Shown here: piece after piece, positions 3,426-29,300 of the stretch | How the letters are laid out: every line of letters begins with the position of its first letter | How positions within the stretch are numbered: the stretch's first letter is position 1 | Assembly: GCA_003531155.1 (NCBI GenBank) | Contig: DQHR01000078.1 | Location: 351 to 36,117, forward strand | Reading direction: 5' to 3' | DNA length: 35,767 bases | Source of the DNA: Bacteroidales bacterium | GTDB lineage: Bacteria > Bacteroidota > Bacteroidia > Bacteroidales > Tenuifilaceae | Position numbers and translations under genes: made by a program | The notes under the pieces: model-generated | Told to the model about the DNA's origin: nothing | Databases searched by the model: none | The model's input: only the letters and a program-made list of their open reading frames with translations

Positions 3426-3488
3426 TCAATAAATAGCATTATAATTTGTAATTTTGCCAGCGTAATTTTTAAAAGTATCCTTATTACA

Positions 3489-4247: not shown

Positions 4248-4253
4248 CCTGTC

Positions 4254-4679: not shown

Positions 4680-4685
4680 ATAATT

Positions 4686-5240: not shown

Positions 5241-5267
5241 TGTTGGTTCTATCGTATTAAAAAGATA

Positions 5268-5291
5268 ATCCCTCTTTCGAGGGATTTTTTA
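5268..5291 (+). terminator. Rho-independent terminator after def
   Basis: Stem atccctc (5268-5274) / gagggat (5279-5285), loop tttc, followed by a T-run. Confidence 0.75.
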
Positions 5292-5354
5292 TTTTATTGG
5301 TTTTTAGTGCAAAAAAATATTGTAACTTGTTATTAGATTGAGTTTGTTTTTTGC

Positions 5355-7469: not shown

Positions 7470-7474
7470 GTTTA

Positions 7475-11968: not shown

Positions 11969-12030
11969 ACTATTATATATTGAGACAAATCAACGCTTAT
12001 AGTAATTCTTTTTAGAAAAGGTTAACTATT

Positions 12031-12076
12031 ATAAATAAAAAACTTTCTCAAGTAGAACGAGCTACTTAAGAAAGTT
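12031..12076 (-). terminator. Strong rho-independent terminator (copy 1 of a 62-nt repeated module, 12030-12091)
   Basis: Minus strand reads aactttcttaagtag-ctcgtt-ctacttgagaaagtt-ttttatttat. The stem is 15 bp, perfect on the minus-strand RNA apart from one G.U pair (a C.A mismatch on the plus strand), followed by a U-tract. Confidence 0.85.
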
Positions 12077-12207
12077 AGGCCATACAACCTTCGCAGAAGA
12101 GCAAGTTTGTATGCACAGACTGCTAAAATATAACGAATGAAGCGACAGCCTGAATCGTTGTATTTCTTTTTTATTTATGGACTTCGCTAATTTGAGTGGC
12201 ATGAATA

Positions 12208-12240
12208 ATAGCAAAGGCTAATTTTAATAGCCTTTGCTAT
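12208..12240 (-). terminator. Perfect 13-bp hairpin immediately after the 1910-aa gene stop
   Basis: atagcaaaggcta (12208-12220) / tagcctttgctat (12228-12240), 7-nt loop, 10 nt after the TAA at 12251-12253. The downstream U-tract is weak (tattattcat), so this could be a terminator, an attenuator or an RNA-stability element. Confidence 0.5.
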
Positions 12241-12250
12241 GTATAATGAA

Positions 12251-15200
12251 TTATTGTTTTATAATCATTTTTGTTTTAATACTATTCCCTGAAGTGATTC
12301 TTATAAAATATGAGCCAGGTTTAAATCTAGATATGTTGAAATCTCCTGAAGTACCTATTATTAAATCTTTTAATAATGTAACTCCTAGAATATTTAATAT
12401 TTCAACCCGACATCCATTTTCAACTGCGTTTATGAGTAGTAGTTTAAAAGAACCATCTGTTGGATTTGGGAAAACATTAAAATCGAGTCCCTTTTGAATG
12501 TAATTGTTATTGCTAGTAGTATCAGTAACCTCTGGTGCTTTATAAAACACACATTTATTATCGTACTGAAAAGGTTCATTATAGTTGGGCTGTATAATAA
12601 ATGACAAAAAACTACCTGTTTTACCTTCGAATCCATTTTTAAGCGCGATTTGTTCTGTAGCAATAAAACTTTCAGATTCACCTGCCTCGTAGGAAAGTAG
12701 AGGACTGCAATTTGCTCCAACTTCGAGGAAACGTGGAGCTAATGTGAAAATATTATCTTTAGTACAGATTTTTGCTGTACTAAAAAAAATACCCTTGCCA
12801 CCTGTATGACCCATATCACAGCGACTACCGTCTTTATCTAATTTTGTTGGATCTCCTGTATCTATACAAGGAGAATTGGCTAGTAAACTAAAATTCCAAT
12901 CAAATTTAGGGTCTACATTTTTATTACCAGTACCCCAGTTAATTTGAATCGGACCTGTAATCGATGATGTAATGTCTGAAAAGTTGATGTTGAGTTTTGT
13001 TGTTTCAGCTGAATTTCTTGTTCCAATTTTGCCTGTAATTATACTATTGGTGATATTTGTAGTCTCTGCATCTATTGTCAGTTCAGCAAAACCAGGTGCA
13101 TCTATTTCAACATATCTATTTTCAGAAATTGTTACATTATCTAGCATCATATTTGCATTACTGGATAGAATCCCCACGCCTTTGCCGTTAAAAACAATAT
13201 TGGGATCATTCAAATTATTAAAATCCACTCTTGCGCCAAGGGCACGATTATCAATAATTAAAACGTTTTTCAAAGACACACTTCCTCCTAAAATAAATAG
13301 CCCCCCGCCATATTCTGCATAATTTCCTAGTATGGAAACATTCGTAATCTTTGGAGATCCATAATAAATATTTATACCACCACCACCACCTTCTGTTCTA
13401 TTATCAGTAATAAGTAAATCTATCAATTCTGGGTTACTAAAATATGAATAAATACCTCCGCCTTTAAATAATGCTTTATTATAATGTCCACTTATGCTAA
13501 AGCCTTGTAGTACGGAGTTATTATTATCAAAAGTCACGGTGGGATTGTTATAACAAGATTCGGGTACATTAGGACCACTATCTTGATTAAGTGCAGATAT
13601 AATTGTATTTACAGGGCAGCCAGTTGCTTTTACGGATATTTTTTTAGAGCCAGAAAAAACAATATTTTCATTGTATGTACCTTCATCTACCTCAACTCGA
13701 TCGCCATCAGATGCCGCATCAATAGCCTCCTGTATTTTTTCAAAATCGGCTGGAACACGAATAATATTATCCTTTCTTTGGGTTATAATTATTTCATAAG
13801 GGCTATTAACAGCCTCGGGCGATTCAATAATCAATCTGCCCATTCTTTCAACATTAGTGTTATTTTCAGATACATTAAAAGTTATATAATTATCAGAATA
13901 GCCACTAGTTCCGCTAATAACTGATAACCAATCGCACTCGGAGCGTGCTGAATAGGTAATTTTTCCTGGAGTTGGAGCAGATGTGACTTGGAGTTTTATC
14001 GTTGTTGGATTCTTACTCTTTAAGAAGTTATTTACCGCTGTAATACTGAAACCCCTGCATAATATCTTGCAGTTTGCAGTTTTTTCACACCCAGTATAAT
14101 TATCTTTTACAGTGAAAGTTTGCTCGAAATTTGACAAATAATTAATGGTAATATCCTTCGTTCTAGCACCATTTGACCATTTATAGCTAAAATTACCCGA
14201 ACCTCCAGAAATTGTCGGAGTAATGATAGATGATTCTGTCCCATTTACATAATAAAAAGGATCTAAATTTATTTGAATATCATCGTATGTTACAACATCT
14301 ACCTGATCAGATGCACTAGTTCCATAGTTATCTCGTACAGTTAATGTATATTGCTTAGTTCCTACACCTGTTGATGAAACGGTTGGATTTTCATCAATAA
14401 TTGAACTTAAATTTGTGTCTGGATTCCATGTGTAATAATAAACCCCACTACCACCAGAAACTATTGGGTTAAACGTTTTTTTGCTGCCATCATTACATAG
14501 GTAGATAGTATTACCCGCATCAACCTGAATAGGAGGACAAACATGAAAATCTTTCTTAACCTCATAATCATCGTTTCTGTAAAATGAACTTGCATTACGA
14601 ACAATCAGTTTACAATTTTTCATTTTATCTCCAACTAAAATATCTATAGTCGAATTGTTACTATAGAAAACGTCATCGATAAACCAATCTATTTCATAAG
14701 GTTGAATTCCTCCCGTGATTTGCGGAGTAACAGTAACCGTATTGCCAATTTCATCGACATATACATAATTAATATTTTTTATGGCAAGTGGATTGTATAG
14801 GATGAACTCGGAGGTTTTTGAATACGTTTTCCAATAAGGCTCAAAATCAATATATCCTGTAACGTCAAGTGTGGCAGTAAATTTGTATGTGCCTGTTCTA
14901 TTTAATTCATCCTTTATTTCATCATTAAGAGTAATCCAAGTCATTGGTTCATTAGGATGTGTAAATTCGATAGGGGAGTTGGTCCACCATTTAAATCTAT
15001 AGTACAAAGAGCGATCGAAATATGTATAGTATCCTGGACTATAAAGTGAAAACTCACTTTGTACATTTGGAAAAGGTAAAATGTTAAAAACTCTACCTGA
15101 CAAGACGAACTTATCATCATAATACCATTTATTATAATATAGTACTATTTCACCATTAGGGGCATTTGGCGTTTTATATACATTAATCTCCTTTTGTGTA

Positions 15201-17983
15201 ACAAGTTTCCATTGCTCGAATTGAATTACATATGCATATAATGAAACCTTATACTTTCCCCCCACTGAATATTTATGTGTGACAATAGTATTTGAGAATG
15301 GAGGTAATAAAGCGCTTTCAATATTGGATTGCGTTCCATCTCCATATGTGATATAAAAACTACAGTTTTTATTTGATGTAATTTCAAAACTTGCATTCTG
15401 GTCGTTTGGGCTTGTTGTTGCAATAAAGTCCATGTTTAAATCGCCTAAGTTACTAACCCTGTAGTCGTATCTTGCAAATGCAGTACTTACATCGTCTTGA
15501 ACTCTAAGTGTTACGGTATAAAACCCTTCTACGGTGTATTCATTTGAAGGGCACGCAATTGTACGTCGTGTATCCCATGGATATGTGTCATCGCCAAAAT
15601 CCCAATAGTATTTTACATCACCTTTTGCATTTTGGATAACACTAATGAATTGTACACTTCTGTTTGGAAGTAAATTAAAAATTCTAGAATTGTTTGTACC
15701 AACAAAAAAATCTATTTTCAGAGGAGGGCTGTCAACTATTTCAACTGTTTTACGAATTGTTTTAGACGTCTGACCACTCCTAACAGTCAATTGAATTATT
15801 TTTGTTCCAATCTCGGAATAGGATATAGTTTCTGTTTTATTAGAAGAATAGTTCATTGAGCAACCATTCAAGAAATACCAATCATAGGAATAGGCTCCAT
15901 CACCACCGCTTGCTTTAACAGATACCTCAATGCTTTCATTCTTTTCTGCTTTTACTTTATCAATTGCTATCTCGGCTAAAAGTTCATTGCCGACAGTTAC
16001 AATATTTTGCGTTTTTCCATAACCCTCCTTTACATTATTTTTTTCAAGAGTTACTTCGGCAGAGATAACAGCAGGATAGGAAAAACTTGTAGAATAGGAT
16101 TTGTTGCTGCCTGTGTATTCTTTAACAGGAGTTGGGCTTTTGTCCTCAAAGAAAATCCAATGATAGCTATAATCTTCAGGAATAATATTGGGATCGAGTA
16201 TTATAGATGTAAATGTAACCTCCTCATCAACATTTACTTGTGTTTTGCTTGAGTTAATTGTTACACTAAAACTGTTGCTTGTACTTGCCTCTCCCCCTAT
16301 TTCAAAGCAATGCATATCATCGTACCCTTGAGAATTGTGAGGAGGAGTGCTCCATGTATTTTGACCTGTTCTTTTTGGAATTTCTGATTCGGAATAACTT
16401 GTTTTTGAAGATGAGAAGTTTTCAATTGCATTACCGGCAAGGTCTGTCCCGTTAAATCGGATAAAATGAACGCCATCGGTAGAGCCATCTGTTTTAATTG
16501 CGCTAGCATCTATTGTAAACTCCCACTCTTTACCTTCAGTATCGATTTTGGTACCAGCAAATGGGCAAGTTAAAGTTAATGTTGCTTGCCCTTGGTTAGG
16601 CTTTATGCTTTCAATATTTAGTGCGGTTAATGGTTCGCTGGCAGTAACCTTAATGGTTAAACTTTTGTCGCGTGCGGCTTTTGCAATTTTCCCATCGAGC
16701 GGGTTGTGCAAATTTGCATTACCGTTAGCAATATATTCAAGGGCATTACTTGTTGAATTCCACACCCATTCTCCTTTATAAACATCTGTAGTGCCCGATT
16801 TAATTTCTACCTTTTGGAGGTAAGGGCATAGATTATCTAAAGTGGTATTTACTGTTGCAGTTGAACTTAGTGCTTGAATAACTGCATTCCCAACATCAGT
16901 GCCAATTGCTTGGAATGTATAAGAGCCATCTCCATACTGGAAACCTCTTGCTATTGTCGATGTCGTTGATGTTGCTTGACTATTGAAGTGATACTTAAAA
17001 AAATCATGACTATGCACATTGGGCACTATTGGATAAATTCCTACACCAACTGCATTTCTAATTTCTTGTTCAGACGTTAATGAATAAATAATGTTATGTT
17101 CTGGAACATTACTAATCCCTAAACTATTATTTGTATAGAACATTTGCTCTAAACCTGTATAATTATAGGAAAAAGTCTTAACAGATTGTCCATTTTTAGA
17201 AATCTGAAGTTGAAGATTATCAAAGTCATGGCTAAGTACTGTGTTTTCTTCAGTTTCAACTATTATAGTACCAAAGGAAATGTCATTTCCAAATTCAGTT
17301 GCAATACTATTGTTATTGTATTTTAATTGTAAATTAATGGTTGGTGCATAATTATTTGTTCTATTTAAAAAACTGAGGGGATTTTCACTCAAATTATTCC
17401 TTTCTAAGTGTAAGTGAGGGCCACTTGGATAAGCTCTAGCTCTGAATATAAGATCTCCTTGGTTAGCAGTCTGCCTCAAGGTGACTCGGCTTCTTGTCAC
17501 ATCATCGTAAAAAGTATTATTATTGTTTGGATCACCGTCTCCATCATCATAATTTCCACTTATATATGCATTAGTTGTTGTTAGAACATTATTTCTCACT
17601 TCTCTAATAATTAATAATCTATAATTTGGATTATTATTAATTCTATAATCCCAAATCACATTATGATTTTCATCCTCAAATGTACCAACATGAACATGAC
17701 GATATCTAAAATTCCCAACTTCAACATAAGAAATATCATCGCCATTATATGCAGGAAGGACAATGGTGCCATTTTCTACTGCATATGCAGGTCCATATAA
17801 ACCAGGGGGGCTATAATCTAAACCTTTATGGAATTTAGTTGTAGTGCCATTTACATATCTTGGACCAAAATCACTTGTTAAATTGGTTAGAGCATTATTT
17901 CCTCCTGTTGGGTTTGGTAAGGTTTGACCAAAAGAAAAATAAGTTAAAAAAATACTTGTCAAGGTAACAATATATATCTTCAT
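12251..17983 (-). CDS. Giant T9SS-secreted multidomain protein: signal peptide, M23 metallopeptidase, Ig/PKD repeats, BACON-like domain, right-handed beta-helix, type-A T9SS C-terminal sorting domain
   Basis: 1910 aa.
- Signal peptide: MKIYIVTLTSIFLTYFSFGQ.
- M23 motifs: FH52KGLD56, YRHVH, GPH190LH192LE.
- Four PKD-like units (e.g. ...YYWDFGDD..., ...ITYGDGTQ...).
- SGGSG-xY-Y-W Ig-like units.
- BACON-like segment: CDWLSVISGTSG...ITFNVSENNTNVERMGRLII...IIITQ.
- Beta-helix entry: IIRVPADFEKIQEAIDAASDGDRVEVDEGTYNE, followed by GGG-rich turns.
- C-terminus: FNVFPNPTDGSFKL...GSYFIRI...KTKMIIKQ (Por secretion tail). Confidence 0.85.
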   Translation of the reverse strand: MKIYIVTLTSIFLTYFSFGQTLPNPTGGNNALTNLTSDFGPRYVNGTTTKFHKGLDYSPPGLYGPAYAVENGTIVLPAYNGDDISYVEVGNFRYRHVHVGTFEDENHNVIWDYRINNNPNYRLLIIREVRNNVLTTTNAYISGNYDDGDGDPNNNNTFYDDVTRSRVTLRQTANQGDLIFRARAYPSGPHLHLERNNLSENPLSFLNRTNNYAPTINLQLKYNNNSIATEFGNDISFGTIIVETEENTVLSHDFDNLQLQISKNGQSVKTFSYNYTGLEQMFYTNNSLGISNVPEHNIIYSLTSEQEIRNAVGVGIYPIVPNVHSHDFFKYHFNSQATSTTSTIARGFQYGDGSYTFQAIGTDVGNAVIQALSSTATVNTTLDNLCPYLQKVEIKSGTTDVYKGEWVWNSTSNALEYIANGNANLHNPLDGKIAKAARDKSLTIKVTASEPLTALNIESIKPNQGQATLTLTCPFAGTKIDTEGKEWEFTIDASAIKTDGSTDGVHFIRFNGTDLAGNAIENFSSSKTSYSESEIPKRTGQNTWSTPPHNSQGYDDMHCFEIGGEASTSNSFSVTINSSKTQVNVDEEVTFTSIILDPNIIPEDYSYHWIFFEDKSPTPVKEYTGSNKSYSTSFSYPAVISAEVTLEKNNVKEGYGKTQNIVTVGNELLAEIAIDKVKAEKNESIEVSVKASGGDGAYSYDWYFLNGCSMNYSSNKTETISYSEIGTKIIQLTVRSGQTSKTIRKTVEIVDSPPLKIDFFVGTNNSRIFNLLPNRSVQFISVIQNAKGDVKYYWDFGDDTYPWDTRRTIACPSNEYTVEGFYTVTLRVQDDVSTAFARYDYRVSNLGDLNMDFIATTSPNDQNASFEITSNKNCSFYITYGDGTQSNIESALLPPFSNTIVTHKYSVGGKYKVSLYAYVIQFEQWKLVTQKEINVYKTPNAPNGEIVLYYNKWYYDDKFVLSGRVFNILPFPNVQSEFSLYSPGYYTYFDRSLYYRFKWWTNSPIEFTHPNEPMTWITLNDEIKDELNRTGTYKFTATLDVTGYIDFEPYWKTYSKTSEFILYNPLAIKNINYVYVDEIGNTVTVTPQITGGIQPYEIDWFIDDVFYSNNSTIDILVGDKMKNCKLIVRNASSFYRNDDYEVKKDFHVCPPIQVDAGNTIYLCNDGSKKTFNPIVSGGSGVYYYTWNPDTNLSSIIDENPTVSSTGVGTKQYTLTVRDNYGTSASDQVDVVTYDDIQINLDPFYYVNGTESSIITPTISGGSGNFSYKWSNGARTKDITINYLSNFEQTFTVKDNYTGCEKTANCKILCRGFSITAVNNFLKSKNPTTIKLQVTSAPTPGKITYSARSECDWLSVISGTSGYSDNYITFNVSENNTNVERMGRLIIESPEAVNSPYEIIITQRKDNIIRVPADFEKIQEAIDAASDGDRVEVDEGTYNENIVFSGSKKISVKATGCPVNTIISALNQDSGPNVPESCYNNPTVTFDNNNSVLQGFSISGHYNKALFKGGGIYSYFSNPELIDLLITDNRTEGGGGGINIYYGSPKITNVSILGNYAEYGGGLFILGGSVSLKNVLIIDNRALGARVDFNNLNDPNIVFNGKGVGILSSNANMMLDNVTISENRYVEIDAPGFAELTIDAETTNITNSIITGKIGTRNSAETTKLNINFSDITSSITGPIQINWGTGNKNVDPKFDWNFSLLANSPCIDTGDPTKLDKDGSRCDMGHTGGKGIFFSTAKICTKDNIFTLAPRFLEVGANCSPLLSYEAGESESFIATEQIALKNGFEGKTGSFLSFIIQPNYNEPFQYDNKCVFYKAPEVTDTTSNNNYIQKGLDFNVFPNPTDGSFKLLLINAVENGCRVEILNILGVTLLKDLIIGTSGDFNISRFKPGSYFIRITSGNSIKTKMIIKQ

Positions 17984-18006
17984 GATAATTTCTAATTAGA
18001 AGGCTA

Positions 18007-19167
18007 CTATTTGATTTTGTATTCAATTCTTTTAATACCATCAGTATAAACATCAAAAGTGTCGTATGAAACTTCTTTGATACTTAGAGTACTAGAACCA
18101 CATTTAATTGGTGAACAATTCAAAAGTTTGCCGTTTAGATCATAAAAATTAATCATACATTTATTAGGAGCAGTATTTGTTAGTATAGCAATTGTAGAAT
18201 TATTTACAAAACATCCCTCTAATACCCATGGTTCAGTCTCAGTGTTTTGGTCTTGCTCTTTTTTAAATATTAGTTTTAAACTTGAACTATTATAAATTTC
18301 AAACATATAAGGCTTGACTATTCGCAGCAAAAATGTTCCATCATAAGACATTGCAAACTTTCCTCCGGCAGGACTGAACTCATGTTCCCATAATGTTTTA
18401 CCATTACTATCTACCAAATAAACAGACGAGCCATCTCTTACCAAAACAAAATTTCCATTACCTGATATATATGAAAAAACATTATTTGATTTATCAAAAG
18501 TTTTTTCCCATTGCTTTTTGTCATGAAAATCATAAAAATACAAAGTGTTTGTAAGATCATTTTTTGATGGATTAACCCTAATTCTGTAATAAATAGCAGT
18601 ATTAAGTTCATTAGGAATAATATATCCGATATTATCTATATAAAATACTTCTTTCCCACTTTTATCATAAGAAAAAAGTTTTTGACGACCTTCTGTTTCT
18701 TCAGAAGAACCATACCAAATAATGTGTGTATAACTCCCATCATCTGATATTGATATGTAATTTGGAATGCTTTCCTTTTTTGAAGTACTCCAAAGTAATT
18801 CGCCTTTCTCATTGTACATCTCAATTATTCCTCTTTCTTCTAATGGATCTGTTTTTTTTGAAGTTTCGTAATTAACTTTTGTAAGTTGATGAGTAACTAG
18901 AACAAAATGTTTTTTGTTTTCAGATGAATAAACCCATTGTTCGTCGTAACCTGATTCATTATTTGGATTACTTTTTAATTTTGATGTTGGAATTTTATAA
19001 GAACTATATAAGGGAATTTCACTTAATTGAATTTCAATACCCTTGATTTTGACAGTTTTTTGTTGATATTGTTGTATTTCAGAATTATCTTTTGGATAGT
19101 TTATCTTTTGCGAAAATGCATTCATACCGATTGCGGTAATAATGCAAAGTAGTATATAGTATCTCAT
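18007..19167 (-). CDS. Hypothetical exported protein, beta-propeller-like repeats
   Basis: 386 aa. Sec signal peptide MRYYILLCIITAIGMNAFSQ. Recurring blade-like motifs (GELLWSTSK, GKEVFYIDN, NGKTLWEHEF, NGKLLNCSP). No T9SS tail and no lipobox. Very AT-rich coding sequence. It is separated by 23 nt from the M23 gene and by 7 nt from the 905-aa gene. Confidence 0.7.
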   Translation of the reverse strand: MRYYILLCIITAIGMNAFSQKINYPKDNSEIQQYQQKTVKIKGIEIQLSEIPLYSSYKIPTSKLKSNPNNESGYDEQWVYSSENKKHFVLVTHQLTKVNYETSKKTDPLEERGIIEMYNEKGELLWSTSKKESIPNYISISDDGSYTHIIWYGSSEETEGRQKLFSYDKSGKEVFYIDNIGYIIPNELNTAIYYRIRVNPSKNDLTNTLYFYDFHDKKQWEKTFDKSNNVFSYISGNGNFVLVRDGSSVYLVDSNGKTLWEHEFSPAGGKFAMSYDGTFLLRIVKPYMFEIYNSSSLKLIFKKEQDQNTETEPWVLEGCFVNNSTIAILTNTAPNKCMINFYDLNGKLLNCSPIKCGSSTLSIKEVSYDTFDVYTDGIKRIEYKIK

Positions 19168-19174
19168 AATTGTT

Positions 19175-21892
19175 TTATTTGCTATTCAGATTCTTTACCT
19201 CATTCTCTAACGCCTCAATGCGCTTGTTCTGATCAATTATATAGAGCGTTAGCTCCTCAATTTTCTGGAGTAGTTTGGCGTTCATCTCGCCAACTCCAAT
19301 ACCTTGCTCTTGAGCCTCTTTTTCGGTTGGAATTTCGGGAAGATGTTTGTTGGTCTTGATAAATTGCTCAAGCTCGCTTAGGGAGCGTAGTTTATGGTTG
19401 CTATTAAAAATAAAATCGGGCCATGGCTGCAACCTAATAATAACCTCCTCAGCAATAACCCTGCCAGCAACAGCCAATTTAAAACCTTTGGTATCTGTGG
19501 TGCCAATGCCAACGTTGCCAGCATTTTCTTGTAGTAATAGAAGGTTGTTGTCTCCATCATATCTTAAAGCATTATATCCACTAGGTCCATTTTGTATGAC
19601 AAATGTTTCAGAATTTTCTCCGGTTGAGAAAAAGACATCTCCAGCAACATGAAGTCTGTGTTGAGGTATTGTTCCAATACCAATAGAACCATCGCTTGTT
19701 ACTCTTATTCTTTCGTAATTATTAGTTCGAATAACAAAATCCTGATTGTCTGTGGTACCTATAAAATTGTTAGTAGGGTTTGTTCCAGTATTGCCACGTA
19801 TATTCCATGTTGAAGTTGAATTTCCTGCATCAGTAAGGATAACATCACCGGTTGAGTTAACACTTAGGAATTTTCCATTGCCTGCTACTGCTGTTGATGA
19901 AGAATTAAGCTGAGTAAATCTTAAGCCTGAGTTTCCAACTGTACCATGGTTTATTTCTAGTTTATTGTTTGCTGTTGTTGTTCCAATACCGACCTTGCCA
20001 TCATAATTAATTATCATCCTCTCCGTACTAAGGGTTGAAAATGAGATTGCTGCTGCTCCGCCAGCACCGGGTGCGTTAAAGTTAAATCCTACCTCGTTCG
20101 TTCCACCTACAACAAATGATGAAAGTATAAGTCCTCTTTCAGACACAGTACCTCCAAATCTTGCTATTTCATTGTTAGATAATCCAGAGAGAACTTCAAG
20201 TTTGGTAGCAGGGCTAGTTGTTCCAATACCGACATTGCCATTGCTTGTCACCCTTACTTTTTCAGTGTTGTTTGTTCTAATAATAAGATCTTTATTGTCA
20301 GTAGTACCTATGAAGTTAATAGTTGGATTTGTTCCCGCATTTCCTAAAAAACTCCATGCAGAAGTTAAACTACCTGCATCGGTAAGGATAACATCACCAG
20401 TTGAGTTAACACTCAAGAATTTCCCATTGCCAATTGTTGTTGGTGACATAGAGTTGAGTTGAGTGAATCTTAATCCGGAATTCCCTGCTGTACCATGGTT
20501 TATTTCAAGTTTACTATTGGGGTTTAATGTTCCAATACCAATATAACCACTCCCATTAATAATTAACCTTTTTGTACTATTTGTGGAGAACTCAAGATTG
20601 TTATTGCCGTATACTGCCATGCCTAAGTTTGATGAAACACCACTATTAATACTTGCCCCAGAGCCAATGATACCAAGGTTTGTTCCGTTGGTTTTAAACA
20701 TTAGGTAATTATTGTTGGCATTTATAGGGTTTATTGAAAGTGAGCCAGTTGTTGAGATATCTCCAACTGTTACTAATTTATGTGAAGGAACGCCTCCTCC
20801 ACAACCACTTATGGGGGTTACTTTTATTATACCTGAAGTAGCAGTTGAACTATAATTTACGACAATGTTGTTGCTTTTTGAATTAGAAGTAATTGTTGCA
20901 CCATTTGGAACTTCCCAATTATATTCGCTTGCACCTGTTACGCTTGAAATGGAGTAAGTGATTCCGTTTGCCCCTGGGTTAACAGCATTAAGGCCTGTTA
21001 TTATTCCTGCTGAGGTTTGGGTACTAATTGTAACAGGTAAATATGCAGGCTGAGCGTTTCCTCCTGAAACACTTATATTACCAGATACTGCAGAAGAATT
21101 GTAGTTGACAGTGATACTGTTAGAACCAGTTCCAGATGCTATATACGCACCATAAGGCACCGTCCATGTATAGTTAGTTACACCATAGACTATTGGTACT
21201 GAATAAACTACTCCTTTTGTTCCAGCACAAATATTGCTATTTCCACTTATTGGCCCAATTGTAAGTTGGGGATTTACAGTAACAAATAATTTACTGGGGT
21301 TCCCTGATCCGCATTTATTTTGTACAGATACAGATATATTTCCAGAGACTGCTGTTTGAGAAAAATTTACAAGAATAGTATTTGTATTTTGCCCATTGCT
21401 GATTGTTGCTCCACTAGGTACACTCCAAATATATCCGGTGGATCCAGGAACAGGTGTTGCATAATAATTTAATTGGGCTCCTCTATATACAATGTTACTT
21501 CCCGTTATTGAATTAACCGAAAGAACACCATCACCAGTTACTTCTTTACTATTTGTTAGCACCTGTCCATTTGATAAGGTAACTGTTACTGTGATTGTAA
21601 AATCACTTTGTGTATCACTAGGGTTAACTATCATGTATTCTAAACCTTGTTCTTCATCAAAATAAGGACGTCCATCATAACTGTCAAGGCTCCATACGAT
21701 GGAGGTAACACTTGGGGCCGGCTCTGTCTCCCAATTTAAATGAATTGTATATACCTCAGGACCACCATCCCAGCAAAAAGTAGATGAGCCCTCAATGGTT
21801 ACTGAATTTACTTGAGCATTTGCATATTGAAATTTCAGTGAAAAGATAAATGCAAATAATAGCACAATTAAGAATCTGTATGGATTTCTCAT
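19175..21892 (-). CDS. Exported PKD-like-repeat / tail-fibre-like protein with a C-terminal coiled coil
   Basis: 905 aa. Signal peptide ...FSLKFQYANAQ. Four ~85-aa PKD-like repeats (YIWSVPSGATISNGQNTNTILVNFS..AVSGNISVSVQNKCG and variants). A duplicated 183-aa unit is rich in NFIGTTDN...RTNN.E..RVTS.G.(V/I)GIGT. The C-terminus, WPDFIFNSNHKLRSLSELEQFIKTNKHLPEIP...LLQKIEELTLYIIDQNKRIEALENEVKNL, resembles what I recall being annotated as Bacteroidota 'tail fiber domain' proteins. No T9SS tail. Confidence 0.75.
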   Translation of the reverse strand: MRNPYRFLIVLLFAFIFSLKFQYANAQVNSVTIEGSSTFCWDGGPEVYTIHLNWETEPAPSVTSIVWSLDSYDGRPYFDEEQGLEYMIVNPSDTQSDFTITVTVTLSNGQVLTNSKEVTGDGVLSVNSITGSNIVYRGAQLNYYATPVPGSTGYIWSVPSGATISNGQNTNTILVNFSQTAVSGNISVSVQNKCGSGNPSKLFVTVNPQLTIGPISGNSNICAGTKGVVYSVPIVYGVTNYTWTVPYGAYIASGTGSNSITVNYNSSAVSGNISVSGGNAQPAYLPVTISTQTSAGIITGLNAVNPGANGITYSISSVTGASEYNWEVPNGATITSNSKSNNIVVNYSSTATSGIIKVTPISGCGGGVPSHKLVTVGDISTTGSLSINPINANNNYLMFKTNGTNLGIIGSGASINSGVSSNLGMAVYGNNNLEFSTNSTKRLIINGSGYIGIGTLNPNSKLEINHGTAGNSGLRFTQLNSMSPTTIGNGKFLSVNSTGDVILTDAGSLTSAWSFLGNAGTNPTINFIGTTDNKDLIIRTNNTEKVRVTSNGNVGIGTTSPATKLEVLSGLSNNEIARFGGTVSERGLILSSFVVGGTNEVGFNFNAPGAGGAAAISFSTLSTERMIINYDGKVGIGTTTANNKLEINHGTVGNSGLRFTQLNSSSTAVAGNGKFLSVNSTGDVILTDAGNSTSTWNIRGNTGTNPTNNFIGTTDNQDFVIRTNNYERIRVTSDGSIGIGTIPQHRLHVAGDVFFSTGENSETFVIQNGPSGYNALRYDGDNNLLLLQENAGNVGIGTTDTKGFKLAVAGRVIAEEVIIRLQPWPDFIFNSNHKLRSLSELEQFIKTNKHLPEIPTEKEAQEQGIGVGEMNAKLLQKIEELTLYIIDQNKRIEALENEVKNLNSK
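19450..20553 (-). repeat. Tandem in-frame duplication (2 x 549 nt = 2 x 183 aa) inside the tail-fibre-like gene
   Basis: taccatggtttatttc occurs at 19942 and 20491, and ccaatacc at 19983 and 20532, both offset by 549. The protein units KLEINHGT(A/V)GNSGLRFTQLNS...GNGKFLSVNSTGDVILTDAG... are near-identical over ~110 aa. Confidence 0.85.
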
Positions 21893-22371
21893 AGTAAAAT
21901 GTTTATTTAGGTCTGGTTATTTTCACTATTCTATTTTTGAGAATAAAATATTTAGTTAAATATTTGCTTTTACTAAATTATTATCAAAGTTTACTTAGCA
22001 GCATTATTGCTCTTAATAGTAAATAACTGCAAAAAAATATATAATTGGATAAGAAAAATAATTTTTAGAAATTATTAATTGTATTATAAAAGTATAAAAA
22101 ATAAATAAATAATTCCAAGAGATAGGGTTGTTTAGTTTTGTTAAATATATATTAAACATTATATCGTTTATAAGGCATTGTTTTTAGAGTTAACTTGTAA
22201 TTGTATAACTTACAAGCCAACTCAGTTTGTGCCTTTGCTGTTTATTGGTAAACTTTTTTTTGTCACCAAGGCTCGAAAATACCTATAGGTTCGATGAAGT
22301 CAATTTAATTTTTTTTATATGATTATCCCTAATTATGGCTATTCCTTTGAATTTTACGAAATTATTCTGAT

Positions 22372-22534
22372 GACAGGTTTTCTTCGGATCCTGTCTAGAA
22401 ATTTCAAGGTAAAATGACTCTTTCAGGTCTAAAGACTCTGAAAGGTCATTTCATAGTATTATCGTTTAAGCATCCTTATGGATACTCATTTACTTTTAAT
22501 ATTAGATGCTTCACTCCGTTCAGCATGACAAAAG
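22372..22534. repeat. Cluster of REP-like palindromic word repeats in the long intergenic region
   Basis: Hairpin gacagg/cctgtc (22372-22395). A 14-bp bulged stem aaatgac(t)ctttcag / ctgaaaggtcattt (22412-22451). agatgcttcactccgttcagcatgacaaaag (22504-22534) recurs at 34782-34803 without the 7-nt insert. Confidence 0.6.
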
Positions 22535-22646
22535 ATACCTAATTATTAGGTATTGAATTCCAATTACCACTCTTAGAACGAACTGGCATTAAATAGTCTT
22601 CAGGGGAGATAAAATAGGATGAGCACGGCAATAAGGACAGGTATAT

Positions 22647-22692
22647 ATAAATAAAAAACTTTCTCAAGTAGAACGAACTACTTAAGAAAGTT
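22647..22692 (-). terminator. Strong rho-independent terminator (copy 2 of the 62-nt module, 22646-22707)
   Basis: Identical to 12030-12091 except for one base in the hairpin loop (g12061 vs a22677). It begins 8 nt after the stop of the 45-aa lipoprotein gene. Confidence 0.85.
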
Positions 22693-22714
22693 AGGCCATA
22701 CAACCTTTAATAAT

Positions 22715-22852
22715 TTAACTTCTAGCTACTTCTGTTGAGTTTTTAACAACTTGGCTGTATGCAGGGCATGTTTTCTTTTGGCATGAACTGAAAACAGCAG
22801 CAACAACAACCAGAACTAGTAATACAGCAAAAAATTTCTTCATTGATTTCAT
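22715..22852 (-). CDS. Mini-lipoprotein (45 aa precursor, ~22-aa mature peptide), CxKxxCPAY family, paralog 1
   Basis: The ORF-track entry 22715-22906 is trimmed to the signal-peptide-compatible start, giving MKSMKKFFAVLLVLVVVAAVFSS|CQKKTCPAYSQVVKNSTEVARS. It has a basic n-region, a hydrophobic core and a lipobox-like SSC. The alternative start is 22843. Confidence 0.6.
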   Translation of the reverse strand: MKSMKKFFAVLLVLVVVAAVFSSCQKKTCPAYSQVVKNSTEVARS

Positions 22853-22912
22853 CGAATTACAATTTTGAGAGTCCAGTGCTAAGTTATTTAAAAATTGGTA
22901 AACCACAAAAAG

Positions 22913-23038
22913 TTACCCTTTATTATTTTGAGCCTTAACACTTGTGCTTGCATAAGCAGGGCATGAGTGTTTCATACACGAGGCCATTCCCAGCAACATC
23001 GTTGCTAGAAATACAATTGCAAGTAATCGTCTCTTCAT
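22913..23038 (-). CDS. Mini-lipoprotein (41 aa precursor, ~21-aa mature peptide), CxKxxCPAY family, paralog 2 (absent from the ORF track)
   Basis: Hand translation of the minus strand gives MKRRLLAIVFLATMLLGMAS|CMKHSCPAYASTSVKAQNNKG, ending at TAA (22913-22915). Upstream in-frame ATGs lie at 23044 and 23047. It has the same architecture and the same C-x-K-x-x-C-P-A-Y motif as the neighbouring gene. Confidence 0.6.
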   Translation of the reverse strand: MKRRLLAIVFLATMLLGMASCMKHSCPAYASTSVKAQNNKG

Positions 23039-23103
23039 ATTCATCATTTTTTAGTTGCACAGTTACAAAATCTGTTCCCAAAATCTGCAATAATTATATA
23101 CAA

Positions 23104-23121
23104 CAAAAGTATTCAAATATA
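23104..23121 (-). promoter_or_regulatory. Two candidate Bacteroidota -7 boxes (TAnnTTTG) for the mini-lipoprotein genes
   Basis: Minus strand TACTTTTG (23111-23104) and TATATTTG (23121-23114), 57-74 nt upstream of the first possible start codon. I found no clear -33 TTTG. Confidence 0.4.
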
Positions 23122-23367: not shown

Positions 23368-26300
23368 TTACTGTTTAATCATCTTCTTAGTTGATTTTTC
23401 GCCTTTATCGCTGACGAACGTTACAAAGTACATGCCCTTGTTAAGTTCTCCTGTGCTGATAAAGTTAGTTTGGTTAACAACCTCGTTTCTTACAACTTGA
23501 CCAGTAATGCTTGTAATAACTATGCGTTTAACATTTGCAGAACCCTCAAACCTAATTTCGTTTGTGAATGGGTTAGGATAAACGGTTAGGTTATCGTTGA
23601 AGTTATCTTCAATACCAGTTGTAATATCAACGATGTCGCCAGCACTACGTGGGTTAAGTTCATAAGTTTGAACCGAATTGTAATAGTTGTCAAATAGTAC
23701 ACCTGTGATTCTGTACTGATGGGTGGCTATTAAAGCTAAATCGGCATACAAACCTTTGTAGATTTTTAAGTCACCAGTTCCATCATTAACAGTATAGCTA
23801 CCATTAGCACCACCCGCAGCACAAGTTGCAAGATTAACTTTTATCAATACACCCTCGTACATTTCATCGTTAGCGGCAAGAGTTGTAACTTCAGTTACAG
23901 CAGGTAACGAACCTTGTCCATTTATGGTTACGCCATTCTCAACAGGAACAAGCTCAGTTAGCTTATTATACTCGTTAACAGTTGCGGTTATATTTACATT
24001 ATCCAATATGCTAACTGGGGTTGGTGTGTAAACATAAATACCATTCCAAGCACCTGCGGCATCTTGAATAGTAAAGCCTACTTGAGCACCACCTGTAGAA
24101 GCATATTTAATAGCAGTTACAACGCCACTTGTTTTAACGTATTCATCCATGTAAGGGCTATTGCCAGATGGATCTGCCGTAGTTTGAATTTGAGCAATTG
24201 TATAAGTAGGTATTGTAGCAGTTGTAACCTGTTTCATCTCAACACTTGAAACGTTTGGTGTAGCCTGTTTATCTTCGGCAACAAAGTAAAAATCGTATGC
24301 TGTGTTGTCAGTAAGACCAGTTACATTAACAGTGTACTCAGTATTTGCAGCAACTGCATCAATTATAGTTCCTTGTGCTTTAATTTCAGCAACGGTTGGA
24401 GCAGTTGCATCTTTTGCAACTTTGTGGAAATAAACAAAACCTATCTCATCAATTTTTACCTTAACATCTAATGTGAATGGTTCAACATTTTCAAGAACTG
24501 GGTATCCACTAATAAACGAAGGTGCGATAACATCAGAATCAATACCTGTTCCGCTAACAGCAATATTTTTGGTAGTAACATCACCATTTTCAATGGTAAT
24601 ATTAGCACTGTATGCTTGAATAGCAGCAGGATGGAATTTAACATAAATAGATGTTGGAGCAACAATACCTGATGCAGGGGTCAACGAAATTGGGCTTTCA
24701 GAAACAAAGTTTGCACCTGATTGTTTTGAAATCTCAAACCCTGCAGGAGCTGTAATAACTATATCACTTGAAAGGTATACTCCACTTACAGTAAATAATT
24801 GTTCACCCGCACCTATCGTACCCGAAACAATATTTCCAAAGTCAGGTAAGGTATTAACATCAGTAGTCATTGTAGGCTCTGGTAAATACATGTTATGAGA
24901 ACCTAAATATGAGAACTCATCTTTTGGATACACAATCCACTCAGAGTTTTCTTCGGTAGTACCTGCTGAAGTTGTCCAGTCAGTGTTCCCTTTAGTAGCT
25001 GTTGGTTTACGAATAATAGTATGGTCTACTGAAGCAGCAGTAGTTCCAGCAATATCAAAACTTGTAGCTGTAGTTATTTCAATACCAAATACATCAATAA
25101 GGTCTGTGCCTTTAAATAACCCTAAAGCGTCATTCCCATTGAAACTGGTAACATTTGAACCGTCGGCAGGGTAGGTTGGGCTGATTAAATCACCTTTGTC
25201 TTTAATGGTTTGTGATGCATTAGCATTGTAAATTACGTATACATCTCCTGCAGCAAGAGTGCCAGAAAGAGGAAGTGAGCATGTAGCACTTTCACCTGTT
25301 GAGTTTTTACCAAAACCAGCACCATTAGTTGAGATTTTAATTGTATAAGCGCTCAAATCAACAGCAGCGTTTGTTGGATTATAAATCTCAATGGCTTTAT
25401 TATTACTGCTTCCTTCAACATATTCAGAGAAGAACAATTCTTTTTCAGTATTATCAATTCTAAATACTATTGAATAAGTTTTGGTATCACCATTTTCAGC
25501 AGTTACTAAAACAGTTGCTGTACGTGCAGCCACATCACCGCTTAAATCGGTTACTTGTGTTATTGATGTAATCGTTGCATCAGCATTGTTTTTGGTAGCT
25601 GTAACATTTGGAATTGATGAGCCAAAAGGTAATGATACAAAATACTTAATAATATTTGCATCAAAACCTGTAACGGTAGTGCCATTATATTGAAGATCGC
25701 TTAACGTAGCATCAGTACTCTTAACAACAGTAAATACAATTGTGTAAACTTTTGAGATGTTTACATCTTCAGCAGTTACAGTTATTGTAGCAGTACGTTC
25801 AGCGAGCGTTCCTTTAAGGTTGGTTGCATCAACAACATTTACACTTGCTCCTGCAAAGTTTTTAGTTGCTACGATAGTTGGAATTGAACTTCCGTAAGGC
25901 AATTCAACATTGTAGTTTAAGGTTGCAGGATCGAATGAAGGCACTTGAGTCGTATTGTATTTTAAGTCACTCAATGTTGCATCGCCTGATTTTACATAGA
26001 ATATAACATTGTATGTTTTTTTTGTGACATTATCCTGAGCAGTAACCTCAATTGTTGTAGTTCTTTCAGCAAGAGTTCCTACTAGATTTGTTGCAGCTGT
26101 TACCTGTGCATTTGCCAAAGGATCATTGGTTGTTGCTGTAACTGTTGGAACAACAGTAGTGTTAGCTGCTAACGAAATGTTATAGGTTAATGTTAAAGGA
26201 TTAAAGGTTGCAATGGCAACACCATCAACCTTGATTTCGGTTAAAGTTGCATCGGTACCAGGAACAGCAACATTAAACTCAATTGTATATGTTTTCTTTG

Positions 26301-29300
26301 AGTTATCCTGAGCCGTTACCTCAATACTGGTTGTTCTATCTGCTGCAGTTGCGCTAGTTACATCTGTTGCATTAGTAACAACGGCTGTTGCTGTTGCATG
26401 ATTTGTGGTTGCTGTAACAGCAGGAGTTGCAGTTGTTCCAACGGGTAATTCGTAGGTGTAAGCAGTTGTTGTAGATACAAAACCAGAAATTGTTGTGCCT
26501 TCCACTTTCAAATCCGATAGGGTGTTGTCAGTGTTAGCAGGTGTAACGCTAAAGACAACGGTGTAAGTTGTTTCTGCAATACCATCTTCGGCAGTTACCA
26601 CTACAGTAGCTGTACGTTCTGCTTCTGTGGCAGTAATGCTTGTTGCTTGAGTAATTGCAACATTTGCATTAGCATCAGTAGCGGTTGCTGTAACAGCTGG
26701 TACAACTGTTGAACCAAATGGAAGTTCTACGTTATAGGTTAAAGTTGCAGCATCAAAACTAGGAACAGAGGTTGCATCGTATTTTAAACTGCTAAGTGAA
26801 GAAACAGTAGCTGGTGCAATTCTTGTAATAGTATAAGTTTTAGTTGTAGTACCATCCTGTGCTGTAACAATAAGTTTATACCCAGTTTGTAGATCAGTAG
26901 CAACAGTTGTTCCGTTGGTTTCGTATGTTTCAAATGTAGCACCAGTTGCAGGAGTGATATTTCCTTCAAAAGTTGCTAGGTTGTGAGCATATGGAATGTT
27001 TGTAATGGTTTCAGCTCCATTGTCAACAGTATAAACTGTAGATGAAATTGTTGCATCTGAACTAGGAGCAACAGTTACTGTAACAGTGTATAATTGAGTT
27101 GTACCGTCTTGAGCAGTAACAGTATAATCAACAGGGTTTGTGAAATCTGTTGTAGCACCACTTGCAGGTGAAATCGTTGCATATTTCGAAACGGTAATTG
27201 TTGGAGCAAGAGTTGTTACGTCTGTGCCATTTGCGACCTCAATTGAAACAGTGTGATTTACGCCATTAATTGTTGCAGCACCAGTTTGACTAGCAAGAGT
27301 AAATGTTAATAAATCTTTAGCACTGCTCTTTACTTTATGCCATCCAATATAATTAAAATCATCTTGAGGATAAATTGTCCATTGAGAGTTTTCAACTGTT
27401 GTTCCTGACGAAGCAGCCCAATCAGTAGACCCAAAAGTTACAGCATCTTTACGTACTAAAGTGAACTCTGACGTTGCTCCTGCGCCACCAGCTACAGACC
27501 AGTTTGTTCCAGGATCTCCAGTGGTTAAACCAATAACATCAATTAGTACATCATTTTTAAAAAGGCCAACAGCATCATCGCCGTTGAAATAAACTATTAA
27601 TCCTGTATCATCAATCAAATCGGCTACTGCCTTAATGCTAGCATTAGCGCTTGCATGAGCAATAACATATACTTTACCGGGCTCTAGAGTTCCTGTAAGA
27701 GGAAGAATTGTACTAAAATCAGCACCGTTAGAACCTTTCTTTAAACTGTATTGTGTCAAATCAACAGTTGACCCTGTTGGATTGTAAATCTCAATAGCTT
27801 TATTATTGCTTAATCCTTCAATATATTCTGAGATGAATAGTTCAGCAGGAGGTGCAGCATTTAAAGTGATTGTATATGTTTTTTTAGTAGTTCCATCCTG
27901 AGCTGTAACAATAACTTTATATCCACTTGCCAAATCAGTTGCTACATCTGTACCATTAGCTTGGTAAGTATCAAATGTTGCATCAGTAGCTGGTGTTAGA
28001 TTGGCTTCAAATGTAGCTAAGGTTTCATTATATGGAATATTTGTAATTGTTTCAGTACCATTATCAACGGTATATGTCCCAGATGAAATAGTTGCATCAG
28101 TACTTGGTGCTTTATTTGTAACAGTTACAACCCAATCTAAGGTCGAAGCATCTTCGGCAGTTACGGTGTATGTTACATCGCTAGTAAAATCGTTTGGAGT
28201 TGTTCCGCTAACCTGATCGGTTGCTCCTACCTTTACAGTTGAATTTGGTGAATGAGTAAAAGTAGCTATAAGACCATTTCTGTTTATTCCATAACCAACT
28301 TCAATGGCAATAGTATGAGCTGTGCCATCGATTGTTGCGGCTCCTGTTTGCTCAGCAAAAGAAAAGGTAAGAATATCTTTTTCGCTACTCAGGGTAACCA
28401 GTTTTGTAATGGTATAGGTTTTTTTTGTAGTACCATCTTCAGCAGTAACAATAACCTTATAACCAGTTTGTAAATCAGTTGCAATAGTAGTTCCATCTGA
28501 TTCGTATGTCTCAAATGATGCTAATGCTGCAGGGGTTATATTCGCTTCAAAGGTAGCAAGGGTTTCAGATGCTGGCACATCGGTGATTGTTTCAGCACCA
28601 TTATCAACGGTATATGTTCCTGATGTAATAGTTGCATCTGTGCTTAAAGCAACAGTTGTCTCATCAATTTTAACAGGACTCGCTTGTAAGTTTGGAGTTC
28701 CATCCTCCGCAACAACATAAATATCATAATCGGTACCTGGTGTTAAACCAGTAATATTACTTGTGAAATCAGTTGTAGCAGTAGTAATTGACTTGTTTCC
28801 AGCAAAAAGCGCAGCTCCACCACCATTAGCAGTACCCGCTTTAACTTCAGCTGCAGTTGGTGCTACAGCATCATTAGCAAGAACAACATAATATGCAGTT
28901 CCTGCTTCGCTCATATTATAAACTAGGTCGAAGCTCGTTTTAGCAAGGTTGGCAGTTTTTGGATAGGTTAATGTCCAAGTTGGAGCAGTAACATCAGCCT
29001 CGGTTAATCCATTTCCTGATGATTCGTCTGAATAGTTAAACGCTTTATCTACTGTGTAAACTTTATAATAATATGTCATTCCGGTTGATAAACCATTATC
29101 TGTAAAAGAAGTTCCTGTTCCGATATAACAAACCGTACCCTGATTTACAACGGTGAAAGTATTCCCAACGGCATAAATTCCATTCTGATTTGGATCGTCA
29201 GTTGCATCAGGGTTTACGGCATAACGAACTACAACATAACCCCCGCCATCAACATCTGCGGCAGCAAGCCAGCTAACATCTAACGAATTTGATGTTGCGT

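Follow-up and report, generated by a model that had tools for sequence, protein, structure and literature searches.

The 35.8-kb window analysed here (the whole stretch under study, taken from DQHR01000078.1, a low-GC (36%) Bacteroidales metagenome-assembled genome (MAG) contig) carries on its minus strand three closely spaced genes whose products are deposited in GenBank as HCT30014.1, HCT30015.1 and HCT30016.1 (DIW31_04640 to 04650), all of them under the name 'hypothetical protein'. Sequence comparisons indicate that these genes, which would encode a fibre-like adhesin, a β-propeller partner and a type IX secretion system (T9SS) cargo with a peptidase-like head, are a genuine conserved module. 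The module is rare and is known only from uncultured Bacteroidales; it is built from three unannotated protein families, and the known principle behind it is that of a secreted peptidase with a genetically coupled protector. To judge from the relationships of their sequences, the propeller gene and the M23-like head of the cargo (~400 aa) are an evolutionary unit. We propose, as the most likely reading, that the propeller may be a periplasmic guard, i.e., an inhibitor or a chaperone, of a predicted peptidase that lacks a pro-domain. In its full extent, from export through attack on the cell wall to target binding by the fibre, this proposal is tentative, plausible but falling slightly short of probable.

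A mechanical list of open reading frames (ORFs) gives the three genes as follows. Gene 1 (HCT30016.1; 19175-21892) encodes a Sec-exported, tail-fibre/MAT-like protein of 905 aa, gene 2 (HCT30015.1; 18007-19167) a Sec-exported β-propeller of 386 aa, the candidate periplasmic partner or guard of the M23 head, and gene 3 (HCT30014.1; 12251-17983) a T9SS type-A cargo of 1910 aa with an N-terminal M23-like head. The gaps, read directly from the sequence, are exactly 7 nt between fibre and propeller (19168-19174) and 23 nt between propeller and cargo (17984-18006), just as described by the first-pass annotation, which had been made from the letters alone and had suggested a secreted bacteriolytic module with an in-operon protector. 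The same annotation assigned Sec signal peptides to all three proteins, and inspection of the N-termini agrees with it: each has a basic n-region, a hydrophobic core, a small-residue cleavage context and Gln at position +1, with predicted cleavage sites YANA|Q, NAFS|Q and FSFG|Q. Substrates of signal peptidase I (SPase-I) in Bacteroidetes follow a 'Q-rule' with Gln at +1 (PMC5837995), and the three N-termini, which look like Sec/SPase-I signals, fit this pattern.

The module is recognized by its recurrence in other loci. In seven sequence-verified pairs from five loci (one in the window, three in L001 and one each in L010/L011, L014 and L015), an M23-head gene is immediately preceded by a propeller gene, and the gap between them, 23 nt in the window, is 9-48 nt in the six other pairs. 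The closest relative of the window propeller is found on L001, a JGI contig (source samples 3300027792 and 3300009082), where three pairs stand in tandem (propellers of 377, 388 and 373 aa; heads of 441, 450 and 393 aa; gaps of 16-37 nt). L010/L011 encodes, after an 18-nt gap, an 1822-aa ortholog of the cargo with PKD units, a C-terminal sorting domain (CTD) and the same architecture as in the window. The head protein of L015 (1302 aa, 9-nt gap) also has PKD units and a CTD, while that of L014 (970 aa, 48-nt gap) is devoid of the latter. An eighth pair, with a 1125-aa head protein carrying PKD and CTD, was identified by architecture only. Altogether, half of the propeller genes examined (7/14, or 8/14 with the architecture-only locus) precede an M23-head gene, a tally confirmed by local hidden Markov models run over all fetched loci. 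Linkage of the 386-aa gene to M23-head genes in other genomes, on which the idea of a dedicated partner depends, is thus established.

The fibre gene is recurrently linked as well. In three loci, namely the window (at 7 nt), L015 (at 5 nt) and L010, the propeller gene has fibre genes of the same C-terminal module (C-module) directly upstream of it, at distances that range over 5-61 nt. The trio of fibre, propeller and M23-head gene recurs in three independent loci, and its co-occurrence, so far only a suggestion, is supported. In L010 the fibre paralogs (322-427 aa) number five in tandem, and at least one more is encoded downstream (2632-7939 and 15661-17095); their N-terminal parts are unrelated, and all of them end in the ~100-aa C-module of the window fibre. 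In L014, an S74-type fibre is encoded nearby.

The deposited start of the propeller gene is an internal ATG that yields a protein of 372 aa (P0003) and deletes most of the signal peptide. The 386-aa start is favoured by ENA/Logan gene calls and by homologs, one of which, P0004, has retained the hydrophobic N-terminus. The 386-aa protein gave no match in Pfam, NCBIfam or PHROG; the earlier description of it as β-propeller-like is nevertheless borne out by profile and structure comparisons. A profile of four family members matches designed PQQ-like propellers (E 4.5e-9) and, weakly, BamB (0.13). The AlphaFold2 model (pLDDT 73, pTM 0.67) contains ~31 strands, and Foldseek searches of PDB and BFVD return many seven- and eight-bladed propellers with a probability of 1.0 and TM of ~0.5, all of them generic WD40/BamB-type folds that give no functional clue. 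Since neither a lipobox nor a T9SS CTD is present in the protein, a soluble periplasmic protein is the default prediction, and we take the propeller as predicted periplasmic. An exhaustive profile search of 1.84 billion representatives, and not the pattern scans of contigs, revealed the wider family: 226 matches at E<=1e-3 and 41 at E<=1e-10, ~36 of the latter being single-domain proteins of 355-430 aa. Few members have a source name, and these are all labelled 'hypothetical'. By these matches the propeller is a small unannotated family. Its N-terminal part contains a conserved hairpin of the pattern G-x-I-x-L-x-(E/D)-I-P.

Across the seven pairs the heads share a mean identity of 38.8% and the propellers one of 27.5%, i.e., the propeller evolves faster. 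The identity matrices of the two are correlated (Pearson 0.93; Spearman 0.56, p 0.0085). Such co-divergence is compatible with matching of specificities between the partners and would also be expected from shared operon ancestry alone. It bears on the possibility that the propeller is a non-inhibitory accessory, such as a folding or assembly scaffold, an adaptor between fibre and cargo or a lectin-like co-adhesin, and that the head needs no guard. β-Propellers are generic interaction platforms, and the Foldseek matches of this one, all WD40/BamB-type, together with the BamB-like profile similarity, would fit a scaffold. The tight linkage of the fibre gene to the propeller gene in three loci, the fibre remnant beside a solitary propeller gene in L009 and the occurrence of the propeller without an M23 gene in five loci all point in the same direction. 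However, a propeller with neither CTD nor lipobox has no known route to the surface, and in L001 the pair recurs three times without a fibre gene, which leaves propeller and head as the conserved core. Rapid divergence of the propeller in step with the head is also more typical of a specificity-matched binder. On balance, an accessory role appears to us rather doubtful.

A similarity to the eight-bladed BamB/PQQ-like propellers is thus seen in repeat-level profiles and in the overall fold. The propeller described here differs from them by the lack of a lipobox and of a Pfam PQQ match, and by its place in an operon for a secreted peptidase rather than in the BAM machinery.

The guard proposal requires that the cargo begins with a peptidase. 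The candidate domain, a divergent metallopeptidase of the M23 (LytM/lysostaphin) type, occupies aa 21-205, right after the signal peptide (17369-17923). Its motifs are H52xxxD56 (17816-17830), Y94-R-H96 (17696-17704) and H190-L-H192 (17408-17416). The presence of these motifs had been noticed before; what the homologs add is that H52, D56, Y94, H96, H190 and H192 are invariant in seven of them at ~39% mean identity, and that the HxxxD, YxH and HxH positions are also kept in a distant relative, L006. With phmmer, a search of 5.8 billion proteins matched the head to a Clostridiales protein, P0002 (E 2.6e-4), which is a genuine PF01551 protein (4.8e-30). In a pairwise BLASTP comparison of the two (5e-11), HxxxD and HLH are aligned across a ~60-residue gap. 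Alignment of head profiles with the PF01551 protein by hhalign gives probabilities of 95.1-95.8%, the eight-sequence profile reaching 95.8% with E 7.9e-9. In PDB, profiles of four, five and eight members match almost solely M23 structures, with E-values of 0.0031 for zoocin A, 0.021 for a C. jejuni M23 protein and 0.026 for lysostaphin; the HxxxD of the head aligns with the HxGxD of M23 structures and its HxH with the PHLHF of lysostaphin and zoocin A. In M23 peptidases two Zn ligands come from HxxxD, and HxH supplies the third along with a catalytic His.

Three results weigh against the assignment. The PF01551 model matches neither the 1910-aa protein nor its isolated N-terminus, even at E<=10. 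Both HMMER and hhalign pair the canonical YxH with a non-invariant Y-x-D at aa 158-160 and not with Y94/H96. The AlphaFold2 model of the head, built on a three-sequence alignment, has a pLDDT of 31 and is unusable. Pfam likewise finds no M23 match in four head homologs, and two relatives stay below the PF01551 cut-off of 28.7 bits (L006 with 23.4 bits, 7e-5; L015 with 15.3 bits, 0.024). A profile test of the M23 claim has therefore given a split result: the Pfam model failed, while phmmer, hhalign and the conservation of Zn ligands and catalytic His in seven homologs speak for it. Of the two candidates for the second catalytic His, H96 is favoured, because only Y94-x-H96 is invariant, in all eight sequences including L006; it would be followed by an insertion of ~65-70 aa between the canonical blocks. 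We conclude that the head is probably a very divergent member of M23 that falls below the curated profile threshold, its fold being a prediction.

Compared with the known M23 enzymes (lysostaphin, LytM, zoocin A, LasA; PF01551), the head shares the HxxxD and HxH motifs, a candidate YxH motif and the blocks that surround them. It differs by its sub-gathering score, by the insertion, by the absence of a pro-domain or occluding region and by its position at the extreme N-terminus of a 1910-aa T9SS cargo. Between the predicted site of signal-peptidase cleavage and the first Zn ligand there are only ~30 residues, too few to accommodate a pro-domain. Past the M23 domain lies a conserved module of ~195 residues (aa 206-400; 16784-17368), aligned in seven homologs, which belongs to the variable 'head cassette', ends at a conserved DNL(R/C)PY motif and has no match in Pfam.

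It is conceivable that the head is not a bacteriolysin at all. It may be a nutritional or proteolytic enzyme, LasA-like, that acts on peptidoglycan fragments, necromass or proteins, or an idle binding domain borne by an adhesin. The strong divergence of the head, its sub-threshold standing in Pfam and its large insertion would suit such a role, and PKD, BACON and SprB-like units, as found in the remainder of the cargo, are typical of adhesins and glycan-binding surface proteins. M23 enzymes are also known to have many roles (review PMC9662197). The strict conservation of all five catalytic and ligand residues at ~39% identity nevertheless argues for an active enzyme. Degenerate LytM domains, such as those of EnvC and NlpD, lose catalytic or ligand residues. 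For an idle domain, moreover, a dedicated co-evolving partner would be hard to explain. We consider a non-lytic head quite unlikely.

Pattern scans of genome and metagenome contigs returned only one MAG lineage (RPRQ01) and one distant relative from a high-GC contig, L006. A word-indexed search with an alignment of the M23 domain found nothing, not even the known 63% relative, probably owing to insensitivity of the search. The L006 contig encodes at 63-1649 a protein of 528 aa whose M23-like head bears the same insertion (HKGID, SYLH, HLHLQ); the gene starts at the contig edge, and its upstream context is missing. With a member on a high-GC contig, the head subfamily is not confined to low-GC Bacteroidales.

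The remainder of the cargo is a stalk followed by a sorting domain. The stalk (13778-15667) comprises a PKD domain (aa 773-840), further weak PKD/SprB units and a BACON domain (aa 1344-1402) recognized by Pfam. A repeat-rich region (aa ~1403-1836; 12476-13777), seen as a sequence pattern, is conserved in the L010 ortholog. The T9SS type-A CTD (aa 1837-1910; 12254-12475) is matched by TIGR04183 (43.8 bits, cut-off 23), by PF18962 (40 bits, cut-off 27) and by the CTD of PDB 8glj. As the matches to PKD, SprB repeat, BACON and Por_Secre_tail/TIGR04183 are all above their cut-offs, the PKD and BACON domains and the type-A tail that had been proposed for this protein stand. The β-helix that had been proposed as well does not: Pfam is empty for aa 1400-1840 at E<=1, and GGG/N-rich repeats are seen by eye only. 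With a CTD above cut-off and a Sec signal assigned by inspection, the 1910-aa protein is, as far as domain matches tell, a T9SS type-A cargo. Machinery of the T9SS (GldK/L/M/N, SprA) is not encoded within the window; that the host genome has such a system is implied by another CTD protein, encoded at 23368-29916.

If the parts are as predicted, the following scheme can be envisaged. T9SS cargo folds in the periplasm, where an active head would face the peptidoglycan of the producer; a head without a pro-domain would thus meet this substrate before export. The co-translated propeller would bind its cognate head in the periplasm and keep it inactive, export-competent or both, until the T9SS removes the head from the propeller. 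Self-protection would be achieved in this way, as by potempins in the case of KLIKK peptidases or by Bd3460 in the case of the Bdellovibrio endopeptidases. Once exported, the head would sit at the tip of a long PKD/Ig/BACON stalk and might cleave peptide cross-links, be it in the walls of other bacteria or in debris of such walls; target binding would be supplied by the fibre protein.

Several further observations weigh against this scheme. Five of the 14 propeller genes are solitary (L007, L009, L012, L017 and L018), and one of them, P0005 of L007, is the third-best match of the profile search. No CTD is detectable in the head proteins of L014 (970 aa) and L001 (391-450 aa), which means that T9SS export is not universal for the head family. 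The reverse linkage, from head to propeller, is not independent, since every head whose upstream context is visible had been arrived at by way of the propeller or of loci that contain it. Finally, peptidase inhibitors and immunity proteins are typically far smaller than a propeller of 386 aa.

In the first-pass annotation it was stated that no described T9SS effector/immunity module of this composition was known. A precedent for a co-operonic protector does exist. In Tannerella forsythia, an ORF for an inhibitor, a potempin, is located immediately upstream of each gene for a T9SS-secreted KLIKK peptidase, and potempins inhibit their cognate KLIKK peptidases specifically and protect the outer membrane of the producer (PMC9890683). 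The likeness extends to T9SS-bearing Bacteroidota as hosts, to a partner ORF that lies directly upstream of, and co-oriented with, the gene for a CTD-bearing peptidase, to several diverged pairs per genome and to a near-identical C-terminal region among peptidase paralogs. The role there, protection of the producer from its own peptidase, is the role proposed here. However, potempins are outer-membrane lipoproteins of 98-132 residues with an OB-fold or an eight-stranded β-barrel, whereas the partner described here is a 386-aa propeller with an SPase-I signal and no lipobox, and the KLIKK peptidases belong to non-M23 families and have pro-domains, unlike the M23-like head. The propeller is not a member of the potempin family, and it is only the operon logic that is common to the two.

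Other systems offer more distant parallels. Bd3460 protects Bdellovibrio from its own secreted DD-endopeptidases (PMC4686830). The pairs Bd3459-Bd3460 and Tse1-Tsi1, the latter from type VI secretion (T6SS), resemble the module in that a periplasmic partner is coupled to a secreted peptidoglycan peptidase, in co-divergence and in the orphan-like occurrence of partners. They differ from it in that here the partner gene is upstream and large, the route is the T9SS, the folds are other ones and the partner is only a predicted one.

An organization closer to that of polymorphic toxins is seen in L001. The variable parts of its three cassettes have 46-54% nucleotide identity, yet each head ORF closes with a segment of 223 nt, 86-96% identical from unit to unit, after which a stop follows within ~20 codons, and the intergenic DNA between units is 79% identical. 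In full-length orthologs, the region homologous to this segment continues for more than 1,400 residues. The positions recorded for the array are 97-319, 2639-2861, 5424-5646 and 8180-8282; a fourth copy of the segment, without a head, is located at the start of the contig. The third head breaks off precisely at the DNLRPYI codons, beyond which unrelated sequence extends to the contig end; L002 is identical in this respect, and the break may be due to an insertion element or to the assembly. A second assembly (contigs L003 and L004 of the RPRQ01 MAG), which is interrupted inside the repeats, covers the first two units and is 100% identical there. In its sequence layout the L001 mosaic looks like a mirror image of the arrays of orphan cassettes in polymorphic toxin loci, and the tandem array suggests switching of heads. 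As in the contact-dependent inhibition (CDI) and Rhs systems, diverged cassettes of enzyme and partner stand in tandem, each with a short conserved stretch of the main gene. In contrast to those systems, the variable module is N-terminal, the partner is upstream, the retained homology is 3' of the cassette and only one metagenomic locus provides the array. In the TANFOR toxins of Bacteroidetes, the nuclease domains are C-terminal and the immunity gene is downstream (PMC7073777).

This array raises the possibility that the system is a polymorphic interbacterial effector-immunity system, in which the head would be a toxin aimed at competitors, the propeller would confer immunity to the heads of neighbours, and silent or orphan cassettes would be swapped into the expression locus by recombination in the conserved 3' segment. 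At least three diverged cassettes with near-identical 223-nt ends and a stop, the conserved intergenic DNA between them, the additional copy of the segment and the identity of the first two units in a second assembly are what one would expect in this case. Solitary propellers, and propellers that have outlived a decayed cargo, resemble orphan immunity genes, and the co-encoded fibre resembles prey-binding MAT fibres. On the other hand, arrays of diverged cassettes are found only in L001 and L004, i.e., in one metagenomic lineage, their repeats are prone to mis-assembly, and the two assemblies may share reads. A full-length expression locus was not seen in the L001 genome, and the window holds one cassette only. 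Moreover, no route is known by which a surface-exposed or secreted M23 enzyme could cross a diderm target's outer membrane, and immunity in the periplasm would then not be obviously needed. We therefore regard immunity against neighbours as an unlikely function of the propeller. A broader version of the idea, which we also doubt and to about the same degree, is that propeller and head make up an exchangeable warhead-and-antidote cassette for T9SS-dependent, peptidoglycan-targeting antagonism or predation, with MAT-like fibres choosing the target. By retaining 223 nt of the stalk in homogenised form, silent or orphan cassettes would then allow recombination to place new heads on one T9SS-exported stalk.

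Two loci in which the module has decayed show that the propeller outlives its neighbours. In L016, a 56-aa remnant consisting of Por_Secre_tail only (9134-9304) comes right after an intact propeller gene. In L009, a remnant of the fibre C-module (7645-7986) directly precedes the intact solitary propeller gene.

Gliding adhesins, polysaccharide-degrading enzymes and proteases involved in virulence are what the T9SS is mainly known for. No open-access paper was found that combines T9SS, M23, peptidase and cargo, and the only proposal of T9SS-associated toxin/immunity proteins retrieved concerns the TANFOR nuclease toxins (PMC7073777). The module provides a testable candidate for export by the T9SS of weapons that lyse cell walls, with dedicated self-protection. 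If the propeller is indeed a guard, the potempin principle would cover a further class of enzymes and a new fold among the inhibitors, and three new protein families would become available for the annotation of Bacteroidota genomes. If, alternatively, propeller and head are an exchangeable cassette, this would be the first T9SS effector-immunity system described as acting on the cell wall.

The composition proposed earlier for the 905-aa protein, with PKD-like repeats, a duplicated GIGT shaft, a terminal coiled coil and no T9SS tail, was found to be accurate. Three PKD_6 units (aa ~123-377; 20762-21526) are matched by PF19408 in three stretches with an E of 1.3e-46, their boundaries being read from the translation. 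They are followed by a shaft with repeated '...GIGT...' motifs (aa ~378-795; 19508-20761), which contains an internal 300-nt direct repeat (19669-19968 and 20218-20517, 76% identical) and aligns with the shafts of Bd3182, Bd1334 and Bd2133. The PHROG tail-fibre families phrog_9942 (3.8e-14) and phrog_18345 (1.3e-9) match the protein, and there are modest PDB matches to MAT fibres of Bdellovibrio (8ojn, E 1e-3; 8oml, 1.9e-3; 8ond, 9e-3). MAT fibres are displayed on the surface of the Bdellovibrio predator and bind glycans of its prey (PMC10769870). The features shared with them and with phage fibres are a shaft that aligns with their trimeric β-helical shafts or with PHROG tail-fibre families, the signal peptide, the variable N-terminal or tip domains and the arrays of paralogs (L010). 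The host, however, is a member of Bacteroidales and not a known predator, and the C-terminus of the 905-aa protein is neither S74 nor a known tip but a separate conserved helical module. This module of ~110 aa with a coiled coil (19178-19507) follows the pattern …DF[IV]F…Y.L[RK].L.E.E.F[IV]K.N.HL…GEM…LL.K.EELTLY.I…, the coiled coil coming after it, and has 26 invariant positions in eight fibre proteins from the window, L010 and L015. No PDB, Pfam or NCBIfam match was found for it, and from its conservation it looks like an unannotated domain family. That it might be a divergent S74 intramolecular chaperone was rejected: Pfam finds no S74 in the 905-aa protein, and a comparison by hhalign with the S74 domain present in the L014 fibre yields a probability of 0.8%. 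A T9SS CTD is not detectable in the protein with Pfam or NCBIfam.

M23 domains occur in phage tail lysins, and the PHROG matches of the fibre and the low GC content at third codon positions (GC3) of the genes could mean that the block is a domesticated or decaying fragment of a prophage, a tail fibre with a tail-associated lysin, that has no function as a unit. This is highly improbable, and we have rejected it. There are no other phage genes in the 35.8 kb, the flanks being occupied by housekeeping genes; neither the 1910-aa nor the 386-aa protein has a PHROG match; all three proteins have Sec signals, and the cargo has a T9SS CTD; and the module is intact in several genomes.

The three genes are a terminator-bounded operon. 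A 62-nt direct repeat that had been reported to bracket the block is real, its two copies (12030-12091 and 22646-22707) being 98% identical. Each of them consists of a 15-bp hairpin and a T-run on the minus strand and is terminator-like. The first copy, with its stem at 12041-12076, is 3' of gene 3 and lies 175 nt past the stop of the 1910-aa gene; the second ends the preceding transcription unit and bounds the operon's promoter region on its upstream side. As both copies are terminator-like, what the repeat marks off is a transcription unit; its interpretation as the boundary of a mobile element was dropped, since a hairpin with a T-run fits a shared transcription terminator better. Between the second copy and gene 1 lies a non-coding, AT-rich leader/promoter region of 753 nt (21893-22645; GC 0.27), in which neither an ORF of >=60 aa nor a recognisable promoter motif is present. 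The Bacteroidetes -7 motif TAnnTTTG is absent from the minus strand upstream of the operon, its count not being above chance, and a scan for σ70-type promoters gave nothing above chance either. An Rfam scan of the window returned no family.

The impression that the block is more AT-rich than its surroundings is only partly justified. GC3 is 0.18-0.26 in the three operon genes and thus modestly below the 0.26-0.39 of the housekeeping genes, but a neighbouring gene for a T9SS cargo is equally low (0.21). The housekeeping genes of the flanks encode NuoE/F/G-like proteins, ComEC, Def, RuvX, a two-component system and proteins of sugar-nucleotide metabolism.

The neighbouring cargo, a second giant T9SS type-A protein of 2182 aa (23368-29916, minus strand), is unrelated to the M23 module. 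It contains two Lamin-tail domains, DUF5018, cadherin-like and fn3 domains and shows a partial match to the N-terminal part of the ExeM model. Between its gene and the upstream copy of the terminator repeat there are two adjacent small paralogous ORFs of 63 and 44 aa (22715-22906 and 22913-23047, minus strand), which have lipoprotein-like signal peptides and share the motif C-x-K-(K/H)-x-C-P-A-Y; TAnnTTTG motifs are present just upstream of them, at 23104-23121. At the other end of the operon, a perfect 13-bp hairpin (ATAGCAAAGGCTA...TAGCCTTTGCTAT) is located on the minus strand at 12208-12240, ~10 nt past the stop of the 1910-aa gene and upstream of the 62-nt terminator repeat; it has no T-run and hence was not listed by the terminator scan.

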